This document shows, piece by piece, positions 1-35,462 of a DNA stretch of 45,192 nt; the stretch's first letter is position 1, and each line of letters begins with the position of its first letter. The notes under the pieces were generated by a model. It saw nothing but the letters and a program-made list of their open reading frames with translations. It was not told the origin of the DNA and made no database searches. Source of the DNA: Candidatus Moraniibacteriota bacterium (lineage in GTDB: Bacteria > Patescibacteriota > Minisyncoccia > Moranbacterales > GWC2-37-73); contig DAIUDF010000004.1 in assembly GCA_036845785.1 (NCBI GenBank), forward strand, positions 1-45,192. The letters run 5' to 3'. The position numbers and the translations under genes were made by a program.

Positions 1-373
1 CATTATTTTCTTGCTTGTTTGCTGTTTTGTATCTCTCCTCATATACTCTTGTTATATTTTTATAGAATTTGGAGAGAACTTTCCTGTCTACGGATATTTT
101 TATATTTTCCTTGTCATTGCAAAACTCATAAGCTGTGATTATATGGTTGTTTTGAAGATATTTTACAGCTTTTTGTCTTAATCTTCTTAATTCGGCAATT
201 ATATCATACGAATAATCGGGTAGGTGTTTTGCCAAGTTTGCTTCCACTTTCTCCTGTTCAGCTTTTATCAGTATTGTATTTTCAGTTTCTAATTCTAATT
301 CACTGGAAATTTCCCTAACGGTGTCAAAAAGAATTAGGAGATTTTTATTGTCCAAATTTTCTATTTTTTCCAT
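1..373 (-). CDS. Hypothetical protein, 5' part only (runs off the window edge)
   Basis: Open frame from ATG at 373 (in-frame ATGs also at 379 and 388): MEKIENLDNKNLLILFDTVREISSELELETENTILIKAEQEKVEANLAKHLPDYSYDIIAELRRLRQKAVKYLQNNHII..., with no stop before base 1. Not in the ORF track. Confidence 0.7.
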   Translation of the reverse strand, partial: MEKIENLDNKNLLILFDTVREISSELELETENTILIKAEQEKVEANLAKHLPDYSYDIIAELRRLRQKAVKYLQNNHIITAYEFCNDKENIKISVDRKVLSKFYKNITRVYEERYKTANKQENN

Positions 374-435
374 ATTCATTATAATCATAATTTACCTCAT
401 TTTACTCTTTAAAAGGCAAAAATCAAGCGGAATAG

Positions 436-464
436 TTGCTATTTGGCTATTTTGATTGTAGTAT
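436..464 (+). promoter_or_regulatory. Sigma70-type promoter for the structured RNA at 471
   Basis: TTGCTA(436-441)-N17-TAGTAT(459-464). Predicted +1 is about 471, the first base of the long stem. Confidence 0.55.
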
Positions 465-470
465 TTACTT

Positions 471-650
471 GAACCCACATTTACATAAACACCGAGGTTA
501 AGCTCGCTTTTAAGTCCAATTGTGATTTGAAGCGGGCGACCTTGATGCACACAATCGGACACCTCGGTGATCTTGTGAGTGTGGGTTCCGTCGGGTCGTC
601 CACTTGAAGGAACTTCTCGGCGACTTATTAAATTAAGTCGTTTTTAATTT
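471..650 (+). ncRNA. Candidate structured ncRNA or 5' leader: long rod enclosing an H-type pseudoknot, then a terminator
   Basis: 471-498 pairs with 561-588 (28 positions, 3 mismatches, G-U pairs favour + strand). 502-510 pairs with 529-537. Loop 514-524 pairs with 550-560 (10/11). Hairpin 589-595/616-622. Terminator-like hairpin at 619-645. Confidence 0.65.
619..650 (+). terminator. Intrinsic terminator-like hairpin immediately before the ATG at 652
   Basis: CGACTTA-ttaaat-TAAGTCG followed by TTTTTAATTTT. Confidence 0.6.
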
Positions 651-651
651 T

Positions 652-1068
652 ATGGGTATGTATGTATTTAGAAGGTGCCCAAAATGCGGGGCTCTTCTTG
701 AAAACTCAGGTTATCTATATGTTTCGTTAGGCAATCCAGTTGTTAATTGCCCTAAATGTAAAGCACCAATTAAAGCAGGAAACATCAATGAATGGGAATT
801 GATGTCTTCAGGAAGCAAAATTTATCATATAATAGCGGCTATAAAAACAGCCCTTGTTCTTTCTGTTTTTATTGGATTTTTGATATCGCTATGCTTTAAA
901 TTAATTAGCAAAGAGATAGAACTTACAACGCTTTTTGTGATTTCTCCGATGATTGGATTTTCCATTGAGATACTGCTCACGATTAGAAGTGTATATAATT
1001 CTAAAAAGAGAATGGGGGATGCTAAATATAGACGCTTTCTCGCGGGAGTAGGTATTGCTAAAGAGTAA
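652..1068 (+). CDS. Zinc-ribbon membrane protein (hypothetical)
   Basis: CPKC...CPKC pair followed by two hydrophobic helices. Confidence 0.75.
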   Translation: MGMYVFRRCPKCGALLENSGYLYVSLGNPVVNCPKCKAPIKAGNINEWELMSSGSKIYHIIAAIKTALVLSVFIGFLISLCFKLISKEIELTTLFVISPMIGFSIEILLTIRSVYNSKKRMGDAKYRRFLAGVGIAKE

Positions 1069-1212
1069 TAACAAAAGTTGATTTTAAGCATAGATATGTT
1101 AATCTTAAAATAAATTAACATTGATATGAGCATAGAAAATACAAGAAGAACATCGCCCATTTTGTCAGCCGTTTTTTCGGCTGCTTTTTAATTTATATTA
1201 ACGCTATGTTTT

Positions 1213-1530
1213 ATGGATAAATCTTTGAGAAATACACTAATAGTTGGAATAATTTTAATAGGATTAAGTATCGTGTATTATTTTGTAGTTAGACCAATAG
1301 TGAATGAAAAAAAGCTGACGAATTGTTTGCAAGAAGCAAATAAATATCTAAATAAAGCAAGAGAAAATAAAAAACAAGATAATGGAGAACTTCTTAAAAA
1401 AGTTGGCAACATTTACGAGGGAAGCACAGAGAAAGAACGGGTATATTTGAAAGAGTTGGCAGCATTCAATGAAATACAAAAAAGAGCTGAGGAAGCAGAA
1501 AAAGAGTGCTTTATGAAATATCCGCAATAA
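1213..1530 (+). CDS. Hypothetical protein with N-terminal membrane anchor
   Basis: N-terminal TM helix, then a helical charged domain with two Cys. Co-oriented with neighbours. Confidence 0.75.
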   Translation: MDKSLRNTLIVGIILIGLSIVYYFVVRPIVNEKKLTNCLQEANKYLNKARENKKQDNGELLKKVGNIYEGSTEKERVYLKELAAFNEIQKRAEEAEKECFMKYPQ

Positions 1531-1551
1531 CTTTCTTATTTTAGTAGAACT

Positions 1552-3906
1552 ATGAAAAATCAATCAATAAAAGATAAATTAAAGAAGCTTTTCATTTCTT
1601 TTTTTAAGGCATTATTTGTTTCTATGATATTTCTTAATATCTGCGGACTTTTTTTGTTAAGTGCAGATGGGTTTACTTCTGCTGAAAAAGCATTGATTGG
1701 CAATGTAAATTTGTGGAGAATTGTATTCGTCTTTGGCTTCTTGTTTGTTTCAACAGCAGCCTATTTCTTCATTAGAAAAAAAGAGGAATTATCAATCCCC
1801 ATTTTTCTGTTTATATTTTGGATTTTGGGTGGATCATTTGTGTATTTTGTTTCCAAAGGCAATATACAGCTAAACACTAACATTACAAGTATTAACATAC
1901 TCGGTTTTGTGAATACTTTTATAACTCTTTCTATATCATCACTATTTCTTATTTGGATATTCGGTATATATTTTTGCAGAAAGATAGCTGCAAAATTTAA
2001 TATGAAGAAAAGCATTGCTGTTTTTGCGGGCATAATTCTGCCTGTGCTATCAATGATGATTTATTCTATAATTTATTATCAAAAAGTTCCCAAAGAAAAC
2101 AAGATAAAATTAACAAAAGTGGTCGCAGGCATTTTAGCAGCCATTCTGATTATTATTTTTGGAATGACTTTCTACACTTTAAGATCGCCAGAGTATTCTT
2201 TGTATCAATTAAAAAAAGCAATTAAGAGCAATGATAAGGATAGTTTCAATAAATACTTCAATTCCAAAGAAGTCTCTGAAAAAATGGGCGAAACAGAGTC
2301 GGGAATCCAAGAAACTATGATGGGTATGGATGTTTCAATTTTGGAAATCAAAGAAGAAAACCCTGATCAAGGAAAAAATGCGATTAAATACATACCTACA
2401 AAACTAAACGGAAAGAGCTTAAAAATGGCATCACTAACTTATTTCAATGGCGAAAATGGAATAGAGCCAGAGATTTCCTTAAAATTTAATGACGAGGGGA
2501 TAAAATTGCTTTCTGAATTGACTCAAAAAAATGTAGGTAAAACGATAGCTATTTTTCTAAATGGGCAGATGGCGAGTGCACCAAAAGTTGAAACAGAGAT
2601 AACTAATGGAGAGGCGGTAATTACGGGAAGTTTTACATATGAACAGGCAAAAGAAATGGTAGAAAAAATTAACACAAGCAAAGATAGTATGCTTGATAGT
2701 TTAAAAATAATAAAAACAGAAAGAAGCGGAAATTCTGCCAAAATTGCTCTACAAAACATAAATGGAGAAAACTTTTGGATAGATATGAACCAAATGCAGG
2801 GAGGATATTGGCAGATAACGGATACACGCCTATCAGAATTTGAAGAGAACTATATAAAAGAAAAATTACCAGTTCCAGATGAATCAAAGACAATTACATA
2901 CGACTGGAAGTATAAGGGCAAGAGCTATTCTCTAAATGAAGAATTGTATGGTTCATTTTATAAGTTTTATAATTCGCTTCCTGCTACTAATGTATTTAAC
3001 GGGGAGTCTCAAATAGGTTGGTTAGAAAAAGAAAACCAATTGTTCATCAATGGAGTTGAGGAAGATGACACTATAAGCAAATTGGCGAAATCTATAAAAT
3101 CTCTTGGGGAAGAAAAAAAACTTAATGAAGATCAAATAGTTGAGTTGATAGCAACATTTGTTCAGACAATTCCTTATGACTATGAAGAACTTGCAAATAT
3201 AGACTCTGGCAATCATAAGATTGATTATCCATATGAGGTTTTGTATAAAAATAAAGGAATTTGTTCGGATAAAAGCTACTTGGCTTATTCGTTATTGAAG
3301 GATTTGGAATATGGTGTTTCATTTTTTCTTTTCCCAGAGGATAGGCATATAGCAATAGGCGTAAAATGTCCTGTGGAGTATTCAAACTATGACTCTGGCT
3401 ATTGCTTTATTGAAACAACAAGTCTTGGAAATAAAATCGGATCAACCCCAAGCATTATGAAAGATACCCGCATTGCTTCTTCAAAAATAGAACTCGGAGA
3501 TTTTGGAGTTGATGCATCGGAAAATCAATCCCAACCGCTTGGAAAAATAGAAATTTTAAATAAAATTGACGGAAAAGAATATGCTGGAATTATTGAAACA
3601 GTTAAAACCCAAAGGGAGATTGACGGCTTGGCTGCATCTCTGAATAAAATGGATAGCGAATTAAAGGTTTCAAGAGTAGAACTTGATCTTAAAAATGGTG
3701 AGGTTGGTAAATTAGTAGATAAGCTCAATAAATTGGCAAAAAGTGATGACATTAGTTCAATTGGCAAATATGATGATATCTATTCTGAATATAAAGATGA
3801 ATACTCTAAATTTGAAAAAGACAGGAAAGCTTTCAATGCAAAAGTTGCGACATTCAATCAGTTAAAAGATAGATATAATAGTCTTATAAAAACTTTTTAT
3901 CAGTAA
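1552..3906 (+). CDS. Multidomain membrane protein: TM region + DUF2939-like + SecD P1-head-like insert + transglutaminase-like domain + coiled coil
   Basis: SPEYSLYQLKKAIKSNDKDSFNKY (DUF2939-like). LNGKSLK...PEISLKFNDEG...NVGKTIAIFLNG...SAPKV...GEAVITGSFTYEQAKEM (SecD-head-like). FVQTIPYD...YPYEVLYKNKGICSDKS...HIAIG...FIETT (Cys-His-Glu transglutaminase-like). Confidence 0.8.
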   Translation: MKNQSIKDKLKKLFISFFKALFVSMIFLNICGLFLLSADGFTSAEKALIGNVNLWRIVFVFGFLFVSTAAYFFIRKKEELSIPIFLFIFWILGGSFVYFVSKGNIQLNTNITSINILGFVNTFITLSISSLFLIWIFGIYFCRKIAAKFNMKKSIAVFAGIILPVLSMMIYSIIYYQKVPKENKIKLTKVVAGILAAILIIIFGMTFYTLRSPEYSLYQLKKAIKSNDKDSFNKYFNSKEVSEKMGETESGIQETMMGMDVSILEIKEENPDQGKNAIKYIPTKLNGKSLKMASLTYFNGENGIEPEISLKFNDEGIKLLSELTQKNVGKTIAIFLNGQMASAPKVETEITNGEAVITGSFTYEQAKEMVEKINTSKDSMLDSLKIIKTERSGNSAKIALQNINGENFWIDMNQMQGGYWQITDTRLSEFEENYIKEKLPVPDESKTITYDWKYKGKSYSLNEELYGSFYKFYNSLPATNVFNGESQIGWLEKENQLFINGVEEDDTISKLAKSIKSLGEEKKLNEDQIVELIATFVQTIPYDYEELANIDSGNHKIDYPYEVLYKNKGICSDKSYLAYSLLKDLEYGVSFFLFPEDRHIAIGVKCPVEYSNYDSGYCFIETTSLGNKIGSTPSIMKDTRIASSKIELGDFGVDASENQSQPLGKIEILNKIDGKEYAGIIETVKTQREIDGLAASLNKMDSELKVSRVELDLKNGEVGKLVDKLNKLAKSDDISSIGKYDDIYSEYKDEYSKFEKDRKAFNAKVATFNQLKDRYNSLIKTFYQ

Positions 3907-3910
3907 AAAT

Positions 3911-4123
3911 ATGGAAACAACCGAAACAGGAGCAGTGGGCTATCTTTTCTGGATTATATACATTGCTCTAACCATTTATGCAATCTATTATTCAAAGAGA
4001 GAAGCAAAAGAGTTAAAAATGAGCGAGACAATAGCTGTTGTAGCAGGCTTACTATTCCCAATTTTGGCGTTATTAATCTACGCACATTTGAATTACAGGG
4101 CAAAGCGAAAAGAAAGTATATAA
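3911..4123 (+). CDS. Small two-helix membrane protein
   Basis: 70 aa, two hydrophobic segments, starts 4 nt after the upstream stop. Confidence 0.7.
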   Translation: METTETGAVGYLFWIIYIALTIYAIYYSKREAKELKMSETIAVVAGLLFPILALLIYAHLNYRAKRKESI

Positions 4124-4176
4124 ACTAAATCTGACGCTATGGCAAAGCTTCAAATTTGTACTATAATGAGACTATT

Positions 4177-4332
4177 ATGGAGAAAAAAACTATTAAATTT
4201 ACTGCCACAAAAACTGTTCAAAAACCAACCACAGTTAAATTCCACACGAAAGATGGGAAGGCTGTGTCATTTAAAGCTATTGAAACAGTAAAAGTGAAAG
4301 AGCGAGTTAAATTTCAAGCGAAGAAAAAATGA
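4177..4332 (+). CDS. 51-aa basic protein, putative antitoxin of the downstream PIN protein
   Basis: MEKKTIKFTATKTVQKPTTVKFHTKDGKAVSFKAIETVKVKERVKFQAKKK*. Its TGA overlaps the PIN ATG (ATGA at 4329-4332). TATAAT at 4162-4167. Below the ORF-track size cutoff. Confidence 0.7.
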   Translation: MEKKTIKFTATKTVQKPTTVKFHTKDGKAVSFKAIETVKVKERVKFQAKKK

Positions 4333-4814
4333 ATAAGATATATCTTGATACAAACATTTTCGTCTCCTATTATAGTGATGAAGATTCCAATAGGAAACAA
4401 AAAGAAGCCGTAATAGCGGCTTTCAAAGTATTTGAACAATTAGGTGATGTGGAATTATGGACTTCAATGTGGACAATTACAGAAATGGTAAAAGTGTTAA
4501 TTCGTAATATAAAAATGGATCCAGAAATTGTTTCAGAAATTGAAAAGGAGCTTCTCAATGAATCCAGACTTTTAAATTTAAAGATACGCTTTGCAGATGT
4601 AAGTCCAATAAAAGACTATGATTTCAAAGAATTTTTCTATCATATTAGAAATGGAATACTAAACTATAATTCAGGAGTGGGAGATGTTATGCATAGCATT
4701 ATTATGAAGAATAACGATATAAAGCACATACTTACATTTGATGGTAAAGATGATTTTAAAAAGATCCCCGAATTGACTGTTATAAATCCCAAAGATGTTA
4801 AATTAGACAAGTGA
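4329..4814 (+). CDS. PIN-domain (VapC-like) ribonuclease
   Basis: IYLDTNIF...TITEM...GDVMH...ILTFD acidic-residue pattern typical of PIN domains. Confidence 0.9.
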   Translation: MNKIYLDTNIFVSYYSDEDSNRKQKEAVIAAFKVFEQLGDVELWTSMWTITEMVKVLIRNIKMDPEIVSEIEKELLNESRLLNLKIRFADVSPIKDYDFKEFFYHIRNGILNYNSGVGDVMHSIIMKNNDIKHILTFDGKDDFKKIPELTVINPKDVKLDK

Positions 4815-4907
4815 TAGGAGTTGTCCTATTTGATTTAAAATAATTGCTGGATCAGGCAAATCTTTAAGCCAGTCAAAGGTTCTAAACCTGTCCTGCCAAG
4901 CGAGCCA
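4803..4907 (-). pseudogene. Orphan C-terminal tail, possibly of a tRNA-targeting recombinase, ending at an attR-like degenerate tRNA 3' end
   Basis: Reads WLAWQDRFRTFDWLKDLPDPAIILNQIGQLLSLV*. It begins at TCCTGCCAAGCGAGCCA (4891-4907), a degenerate version of the tRNA end TCCTACCGCCGGAGC(CA) repeated downstream. Confidence 0.4.
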
Positions 4908-4945
4908 AATTAAAAAAGCATCCTTTTTGGGTGCTTTTTTAATTT
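4908..4945. terminator. Bidirectional terminator-like hairpin following the att-like tRNA end
   Basis: AATTAAAAAAGCATCC-ttttt-GGGTGCTTTTTTAATT. Confidence 0.7.
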
Positions 4946-4957
4946 TGTTTTGAGTTG

Positions 4958-5070
4958 GGTAGGATTCGAACAGGAAAGGGGTCGGGAAAACGTGAGTTTT
5001 CCTGGGGTGGATGTATTGAAACCGCAAGGTTTCAAGGAGCAAAGCGACGTGAGATTCCTACCGCCGGAGC
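4958..5070 (+). repeat. tRNA-tail element, copy 1 (tRNA-Asn-type flanks)
   Basis: GGTAGGATTCGAAC (inverted T-loop/T-stem) + core GAAAGGGGTCGGGAAAAC..GTTTTCC..TTGAAACCGCAAGGTTTCAA + TCCTACCGCCGGAGC (T-stem, acceptor CGCCGGA, discriminator G). Core shared with 35341-35462. Confidence 0.8.
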
Positions 5071-6074
5071 GGTGGAGTTTACTTCAAAAATTGGTGCGGG
5101 GTGAAAATCCTACCGCCGGAGCAAAGAAAATAAGGCTTAAAATCGCCTTGTTTTTTGTTTATATTTTATGATATAATTAACATCTAAAAATAATTTTGCA
5201 TGAAATATGAAAATAACTTTATTTAAAAAATGGAATCTGGCAATAAAAATAGTTCCCATTCTAATTGGGATATTTATTTTAAAATTGATATTTCATAAAT
5301 TTGGCTTTGAATACATTTCTCTCAATGCTTTGTTTACCAGTCTAATCGCGGCAACAACTTTTTTGATCGGGTTTCTTATAACCGGCGTTATTTCTGATTA
5401 TAAGGAAAGTGAAAAAATTCCCGGCGATATGGCAGCCGGACTGGAATCTATTCATGATGAAATTTATATATTAGATAAAAACAAAGGTAACGAATCTACG
5501 AAAAAATATTTGAATTTCTACAAAGCTTTTTTAAATTCAATAATTGATTGGTTTTACCGAAAAGAAAAAACTAAAAACATCCTGGTGAAACTTCATCAAA
5601 TGGATGATTATTTTTCCGAATTGGAAAGCATAATTCAGCCGAATTTTCTAGCTAGAATGAAAAATGAGCAGGGAAATATAAGAAAAATGATTATTAGGGT
5701 AGATAATATTAGGGATTTGTCTTTTATACAATCAGCTTATGCTATTGTTGAATCACTGGCCTTTTTCGTAATAACCGGGCTTCTGATTTTAAAAGTCGAA
5801 CCTTTTTATGAGGCTCTTTTCTTTACGATGTTGGTTTCTTTTCTTATGGTTTATATGATTTTTTTAATTAAGGATTTGGATAATCCTTTTGATTATTCAA
5901 AAAATGGCGAGAACGGAACAGAGGTTTCCATAAAGCCCATTTATGATTTAATTGAAAGAGTGAAAGACAATAAATGATGCGCCTTGCATTATAATGGCTC
6001 TAACATTATCTATTGAGCGGAGCATCAAAGTTTACTTCAAAAAATAGTGTTGGGTGATATCCTACCGCTGGAGC
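5065..6074 (+). repeat. Imperfect ~58 bp direct repeats (5065-5122 and 6017-6074), each ending in the tRNA 3'-end copy and bracketing one gene
   Basis: CGGAGC..AGTTTACTTCAAAAA..GGGTGA..ATCCTACCGC(C/T)GGAGC in both copies. Confidence 0.75.
5207..5977 (+). CDS. Bestrophin-like (DUF4239-type) membrane protein
   Basis: Two N-terminal TMs, a soluble helical region, two C-terminal TMs ending IKDLDNPF. Confidence 0.7.
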   Translation: MKITLFKKWNLAIKIVPILIGIFILKLIFHKFGFEYISLNALFTSLIAATTFLIGFLITGVISDYKESEKIPGDMAAGLESIHDEIYILDKNKGNESTKKYLNFYKAFLNSIIDWFYRKEKTKNILVKLHQMDDYFSELESIIQPNFLARMKNEQGNIRKMIIRVDNIRDLSFIQSAYAIVESLAFFVITGLLILKVEPFYEALFFTMLVSFLMVYMIFLIKDLDNPFDYSKNGENGTEVSIKPIYDLIERVKDNK

Positions 6075-35340: not shown

Positions 35341-35462
35341 GTGCCCGAAGAGAGACATCTCACTCGTTCCGACAAGTCGGAACTCTTTGAAACCTTGCGG
35401 TTTCAATGCTTCCACCGCGGGAAAACTCTTGTTTTCCCGACCCCTTTCTTTGTTCGAGTCTC
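35341..35462 (-). repeat. tRNA-tail element, copy 2 (tRNA-Leu flanks)
   Basis: Minus strand GAGACTCGAAC (inverted T-loop of the adjacent tRNA-Leu) + shared core + GTCTCTCTTCGGGCAC (direct copy of the tRNA 3' end). Confidence 0.85.

Follow-up and report, generated by a model that had tools for sequence, protein, structure and literature searches.

The window, i.e., the whole stretch of DNA that was analysed (45,192 nt), is the entire contig C4 of G000, a MAG of a Candidatus Moraniibacteriota bacterium with a 937-kb assembly in 48 contigs. Toward its left end lie the right-hand part of a genomic island, a small ORF on the minus strand, a small structured element and, behind the latter, shorter units with similar ends (Table 1). 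We built a covariance model (R1) from seven element copies of this genome and obtained 12 matches in the assembly, the top one spanning the full model length at window 4968-5055 (+; 108.6 bits, E = 1.7e-28). This match belongs to a complete copy at 4957-5069 (+), as the original prediction had claimed for this stretch, and the flanks of that copy are of tRNA-Asn type, also as claimed. The fold of 4955-5070 contains the pairing of arm and tail (-39.6 kcal/mol, z = -3.4), the loop of hairpin B is GCAA, and the core terminates in a fixed GTGA (5049-5052). In the whole 937-kb assembly, the 13-nt tail has just three exact occurrences, at window 5057, at window 5109, and at the end of a tRNA on contig C22.

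Table 1. Features at the left end of the window and in the adjoining DNA (window coordinates unless a contig is named).
Feature	Coordinates	Strand	Description
Island, left 6.26 kb	L075:1166-7424		Outside window; includes serine recombinase L075:5879-7435
Island, right 4.9 kb	1-4906		ORF 2-388 (minus), leader RNA, Zn-ribbon protein, SecD-head/transglutaminase-like protein, PIN gene
Small conserved ORF	4803-4910	-	~35-38 aa; its first codons are the putative "degenerate tRNA end"
A-rich linker, hairpin, T-rich leader	4907-4956	+	Ahead of the arm; layout similar in the Leu and Gly copies
5' arm	4957-4971	+	Reverse complement of tRNA-Asn positions 53-67 (14/15 bases), spanning T-loop, 3' strand of T-stem and acceptor start; pairs with the start of the tail, closing the element
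Conserved core	4972-5052	+	R1 match; hairpin A 4983-5004, hairpin B 5016-5035
Tail (DR1)	5053-5069	+	tRNA-Asn T-loop position 57 to discriminator position 73 (16/17 bases)
Post-tail 15 nt	5070-5084	+	Similar to the 15 nt that follow tRNA-Asn itself (12/15 with G000, 13/15 with G001)
Relic unit	5085-5122	+	Short spacer ending in core-end-like GTGA (5101-5104), then second tail 5105-5121
Alternative island right end	6004-6074	+	14-mer 6004-6017 shares 12/14 bases with the right-end arm of the G014 island

The element can be aligned with sequence 3' of tRNA-Leu(CAA) on the minus strand (35341-35462), and the claim that an upstream hairpin is shared at Leu-like spacing was borne out. The hairpin (4918-4934) has a stem of 4918-4923 with 4929-4934 followed by a T run, and the distance to the arm is 50 nt from a tRNA-end-like stretch ending at 4906, compared with 46-47 nt from tRNA-Leu. 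Judging by this likeness to the Leu copy, 4907-4956 is probably the left part of the Asn element. Neither ARAGORN nor Rfam called a tRNA within the 700 nt upstream of the element, and searches with Rfam release 15 over 4500-5400 and over the other copies returned no family reaching threshold.

The tRNA-end-like stretch itself had been taken for a degenerate 17-nt tRNA end (~4890-4906), and this part of the original prediction was not confirmed. The stretch agrees with the tRNA-Asn end at only 10 of 14 bases and forms the N-terminal coding part of the minus-strand ORF, whose protein sequence is conserved in at least seven further genomes (G014, G027, G028, G033, G037, G047, and G052). On the plus strand, 4878-4906 does look like a T-arm and acceptor end, and we considered it as the decayed end of a tRNA-Arg(GCG); we dropped this candidate since the same sequence is the start of the conserved ORF in genomes without a nearby tRNA. 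Around six copies of the small ORF, loci of ~2-4.5 kb yielded no tRNA call. The ~36-aa ORF and its hairpin recur after unrelated single genes (e.g., at L088:13213-13320, and 3-4 times in L070, a single 4.5-kb contig of G033 [G033:C31]), and together they look like a cassette boundary module. Because this protein-coding module recurs so often in the G033 contig, the stop of conservation at 4907 is also weakened as a marker of the island terminus. In the window, no further island feature can be recognised between the small ORF and the element.

The element family

The element is one copy of a family of ~90-nt structured elements. Of 33 genomes in the taxonomic family, 28 have it, and copy numbers range from 0 to 12. 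Over the 40 copies examined, which come from these 28 genomes, the hairpins are 96.8% paired, with compensatory changes at five pairs. Repeat boundaries were measured by local alignments of tRNA-linked copies. The element core lies 19-65 nt from the tRNA end, on the same strand, in the tRNA-linked copies analysed, and the tail starts inside the T-loop (position 57-60) of the copy's own upstream tRNA in 22 of 27. The tail repeat is 12-51 nt long and reaches as far as 35 nt beyond the tRNA. Since the base after the fixed GTGA tracks tRNA residue 57 (A or G) in 22/22 copies, the start of the repeat lies between positions 56 and 57. The 5' arm of the family is the reverse complement of tRNA positions 53 to ~63-70 and pairs with the tail in the fold, an arrangement that puts GAAC opposite GTGA and so creates a tandem G.A mismatch in the closing helix of nearly all copies. 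A terminator usually follows 3' of the tail.

We also considered whether the element depends on a reverse transcriptase and found this unsupported, since presence and absence do not track each other over the 33 genomes (element with reverse transcriptase, 11; element without, 17; reverse transcriptase without element, three; neither, two) and RVT_1 was not found in G000. No reverse transcriptase or transposase was seen to track the element, and this counts against the reading preferred below. A literature search likewise found no description of it; with neither an Rfam family nor a published account found, the family is uncatalogued.

Several copies are arranged differently. Tail-less copies abut the 5' end of the next tRNA (L005:1060-1145, equivalent to C32:3059-3144; L056; L044), a second arrangement with the same core. 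Others stand 3' of a protein gene with a repeat that includes the stop codon (C37:2017-2155, minus strand, in G000; L041, L045, and L049), and these are common to four genera. At the tRNA-Leu(CAA) site of G002, a different insertion of ~150 nt is present (L095:2100-2260, from G002:C1), in which the anticodon and variable arms of tRNA-Leu are partly copied and which terminates in a tail-like stretch. At C17:6460-6600 (minus), a T-arm and acceptor end with encoded CCA precedes an element copy and received no ARAGORN or Rfam call; it is possibly a tmRNA or another intron-bearing tRNA.

The tRNA-Asn(GTT) gene and its linkage to the window

ARAGORN reported no tRNA-Asn in the G000 assembly. The original prediction had forecast an unseen plus-strand tRNA-Asn(GTT) upstream of the window, starting with TCCGGCG and terminating in a specified 22-mer. 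This 22-mer was found exactly at C22:60-81 (minus), 59 nt from the end of the contig, and the upstream exon on C22 begins with TCCGGCG. ARAGORN reads the two exons (C22:487-454 and 97-60), once joined, as a tRNA-Asn(gtt) of 72 nt, identical to the intron-less gene of G004. The exons are separated by an intron of 356 nt (C22:98-453, minus) that splits the anticodon loop. Rfam model RF00028 matched C22:105-444 over model positions 1-253 of 253 (44.7 bits, E = 9e-9), a score below the gathering score of 50. This putative group I intron in the anticodon loop accounts for the failure of ARAGORN to call the gene. The orthologous tRNA-Asn intron of G001, a member of the same genus, carries an HNH-type endonuclease ORF (L021, from G001:C7, ~1040-1600), and tRNA-Asn is intron-less in G004, G014, G019, and G031. 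Thus, the forecast was right as to the sequence, location, and strand of the gene, and the intron was not foreseen. The apparent absence of tRNA-Asn from this genome is an annotation artefact of the putative group I intron, which is relevant to tRNA censuses in small-genome candidate-phyla bacteria, and the verification of a prediction made from sequence alone shows that the element tail is a reliable record of the tRNA of origin.

Comparison of contig ends by k-mer overlaps joined C28 to C6 (tRNA-His is split between the end of C28 and the start of C6, which overlap by 55 nt) and gave no link between C22 and C4. An exact 24-nt pattern from the C22 end retrieved one public contig, L075 (28,989 nt), from an activated-sludge assembly. 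L075:7365-7642 and L075:1-1165 are 100% identical to C22:1-278 and, in reverse, to window 1165-1, respectively, placing tRNA-Asn upstream of the window on the plus strand, as predicted. In window orientation, the order is tRNA-Asn (+), 59 nt, 6,199 nt absent from the MAG, and window position 1; from the tRNA-Asn 3' end it is 6,258 nt to position 1 and 11,214 nt to the arm of the element. This separation makes the Asn copy exceptional, as it falls far outside the family range and no kb-scale distance between tRNA and element occurs in the other copies among the 40 examined.

L075 is itself a metagenome assembly, and a chimeric join of C22 and C4 in it is formally conceivable. We consider it very improbable that either the join or the Asn-type flanks came from mis-assembled repeats. 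The MAG is in 48 contigs with breaks at repeats, and C22 does end 59 nt after the tRNA, as such an artefact might produce; yet an independent contig covers both junctions without mismatch, the recombinase described below runs into the tRNA in G014 likewise, and the arm and tail were counted as unique in the genome (the exact tail being confined to the three sites given above).

The island, the empty sites and the order of insertion

The DNA between tRNA-Asn and the element measures 11.2 kb and has a GC content of 33.5%, compared with ~38% for the genome. Its main feature outside the window is a large serine recombinase of 518 aa with domains PF00239 (Resolvase), PF07508 (Recombinase), and PF13408 (Zn_ribbon_recom) and a match to the PHROG 95 integrase (E = 1e-74). 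The other products of the left part are a primase zinc-finger protein, a DUF5659 protein, and several ORFs without a family; window ORF 2-388 (minus), the first island gene in the window, is the N-terminus of a 516-aa ORF. That an island was inserted here, as originally claimed, is supported by its low GC, the recombinase adjoining the tRNA, and the lack of any homologue of this first gene in 60 relatives. The recombinase gene is oriented into the tRNA, and its frame ends at a TAG inside the T-stem of tRNA-Asn. A TAG stop in the tRNA-Asn T-stem is found in both G000 (L075:7433-7435) and G014 (L088, ~336-346). Since the frame crosses the junction to reach this stop, the C-terminus of the recombinase may differ between the integrated and excised states.

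A recombinase 64% identical to that of G000 has the same position and orientation at tRNA-Asn in G014, and more distant recombinases are found at tRNA-Asn in G004, G019, G029, and G031. No tail repeat was detected within 20 kb of the tRNA-Asn islands in the three genomes checked (G014, G004, and G031), nor was there an R1 match in the G014 genome; islands of this kind, therefore, do not need the element. In G001, tRNA-Asn is joined directly to the homologue of window 5070-5160, with neither island nor element, so that the difference between G000 and G001 amounts to the island, the element, and one extra tail. Because G001 lacks both, and G014, which belongs to another genus, has a related island without the element, element and island are separable. 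G001 is also empty at the site of the Leu copy, which shows that what was inserted there extends from the A-rich linker through hairpin, T-rich leader, and arm to the core. By analogy, the left edge of the Asn element would lie at ~4907, assigning the upstream hairpin to the element; this edge coincides with the end of the island's last conserved feature. With G001 empty and G000 filled at the Asn and the Leu locus alike, the two genomes provide a natural before and after that define the inserted DNA.

The same comparison bears on the possibility that the element is immobile, a tRNA-linked functional RNA with a role in processing, termination or 3'-end mimicry, and that its tRNA was lost by an unrelated rearrangement. 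Covariation in both hairpins, the near-universal GAAC/GTGA tandem G.A mismatch, the terminator that usually follows the tail, and the sharing of some loci by several genera would all suit such an RNA. However, filled and empty sites within one genus at the Leu and Asn loci, copy numbers of 0-12 among close relatives, repeats that extend beyond the tRNA end, and copies at the 3' end of a protein gene speak against it, and we regard this explanation as decidedly unlikely.

The best reading, to which we give slightly better than even chances, is that the element came first and the island later. A small structured element (4907-5069) would insert just 3' of tRNA genes, each copy consisting of a linker with a terminator-like hairpin, a T-rich leader, a reverse-copied T-arm, a core of ~80 nt that has two hairpins and lies between GAAC and GTGA, and a repeated stretch of the tRNA starting at T-loop position 57. 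The present copy would have been made at tRNA-Asn(GTT). Later, the 11.2-kb serine-recombinase integrative element would have recombined at or within ~15 nt of the tRNA-Asn end and, on entry, pushed the tRNA 11,214 nt leftward, out of the window; the presence of this island between the two would explain why the element now lies 11 kb from its tRNA. The locus would, in effect, be a stack of such events, with 5085-5122 and 6020-6074 as shorter units of earlier rounds. The element, the tRNA, their physical linkage, the genes of the island, and the empty site in G001 are direct findings, whereas the sequence of insertions, the precise points of crossover, and the mode by which the element is copied are what we infer. 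That the element preceded the island, as first proposed, is thus favoured by the 22 of 27 tails, the G001 junction, and the element-less G014 island, though not proven. The G001 state could be the product of a deletion between two repeats rather than ancestral, and the likeness of the 15 nt after the tRNA to the 15 nt after the tail (12/15) fits either a duplication that arose with the element or related island arms.

The right boundary of the island is ambiguous, with two candidate ends (attR), at ~4907 and ~6017. The 6-nt sequence GGTGCT is repeated at two candidate junctions (once 15 nt beyond the tRNA, once at window 4930) and is weak evidence as it occurs three times in 13.5 kb. At the ~6017 end, the 14-mer 6004-6017 lies where chromosomal homology resumes; behind it come a fragment of a tRNA end, another relic unit, and the third tail, with one mismatch (6060-6074). 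In each of the two units, at 5085-5122 and 6020-6074, a short spacer leads to a core-end-like GTGA and then to a tail, and both units look like deletion relics of earlier rounds; the former is also found directly behind the tRNA-Asn of G001. Between them, the region of a bestrophin-like gene (5123-6019) is flanked by a tail on the left and by the island-arm-like 14-mer and tRNA-end fragment on the right, and may be the remnant of an older island.

The match of the 14-mer, together with the resumption of homology there, implies that the island may reach ~6017 and enclose the element in a composite unit, and an island end at this point would count against the main reading by putting the element inside the island. 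It is possible, if doubtful, that the island brought the element along in this way, within itself or at one end, either because the island extends from the tRNA end to ~6017, with element, tail, and relic units arriving as one unit together with earlier-acquired DNA flanking tRNA-Asn, or because arm, core, and tail form an attachment module of the island, in which case the short copies elsewhere would be miniature derivatives. The arm of G014 that the 14-mer resembles is itself an inverted repeat of that island's left-end arm. Moreover, the layouts of G014 and G000 are alike (small ORF and hairpin, one membrane-protein gene, arm), and the left end of the island opens with a terminator hairpin right after the repeat, like the short copies. 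Against this, none of the other copies from the 28 genomes is of kb scale, the serine-recombinase islands at tRNA-Asn in G014, G004, and G031 have neither element nor tail repeat, and the composite arrangement would still require an earlier entry of the island between tRNA and element. In its most far-reaching form, arm, core, and tail would be the attachment device of tRNA-targeting integrative units, the arm being templated from the target, with the 11-kb Asn unit as the sole full-length, recombinase-bearing member so far and the ~160-nt copies as miniature derivatives. This we consider unlikely, but if true, it would mean a target-copying, structure-guided integration system in Patescibacteria. 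We retain entry of the element before the island as the preferred order.

Comparison with known systems

Group I introns are known from the anticodon loops of bacterial tRNAs, including cyanobacterial tRNA-Leu(UAA), tRNA-fMet, and others. The intron on C22 resembles these in its position and in matching RF00028 over the full model length, while its host is tRNA-Asn(GTT) and its score of 44.7 bits stays below the gathering score.

Most described tRNA-targeting islands encode tyrosine integrases and are bounded by a long identity block. The present island resembles serine-recombinase tRNA islands in that the recombinase gene directly borders the 3' end of the tRNA, the tRNA stays intact, the GC content is low, cargo and toxin-antitoxin genes are carried, and older remnants are stacked downstream (tandem accretion). 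It differs from most tRNA islands in its large serine recombinase, whose frame stops at the TAG in the tRNA T-stem in both G000 and G014, and in lying between the tRNA and a separate small element. At one and the same tRNA end, serine-recombinase islands and tail elements accumulate.

The element, for its part, is similar to MITEs, SINEs, and elements mobilized by target-primed reverse transcription in that ~150-170 nt are inserted, many copies and truncated relics occur per genome, filled and empty sites are found among congeners, and a direct repeat of the target is present. In contrast to MITEs and SINEs, its repeat always begins in the T-loop, with a variable length of 12-51 nt, and each copy has an inverted copy of its own target between leader and core; neither a reverse transcriptase nor a transposase tracks it. 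The orphan state of the Asn element is ordinary island biology, and what is unusual is the element family with its target-derived inverted arm.
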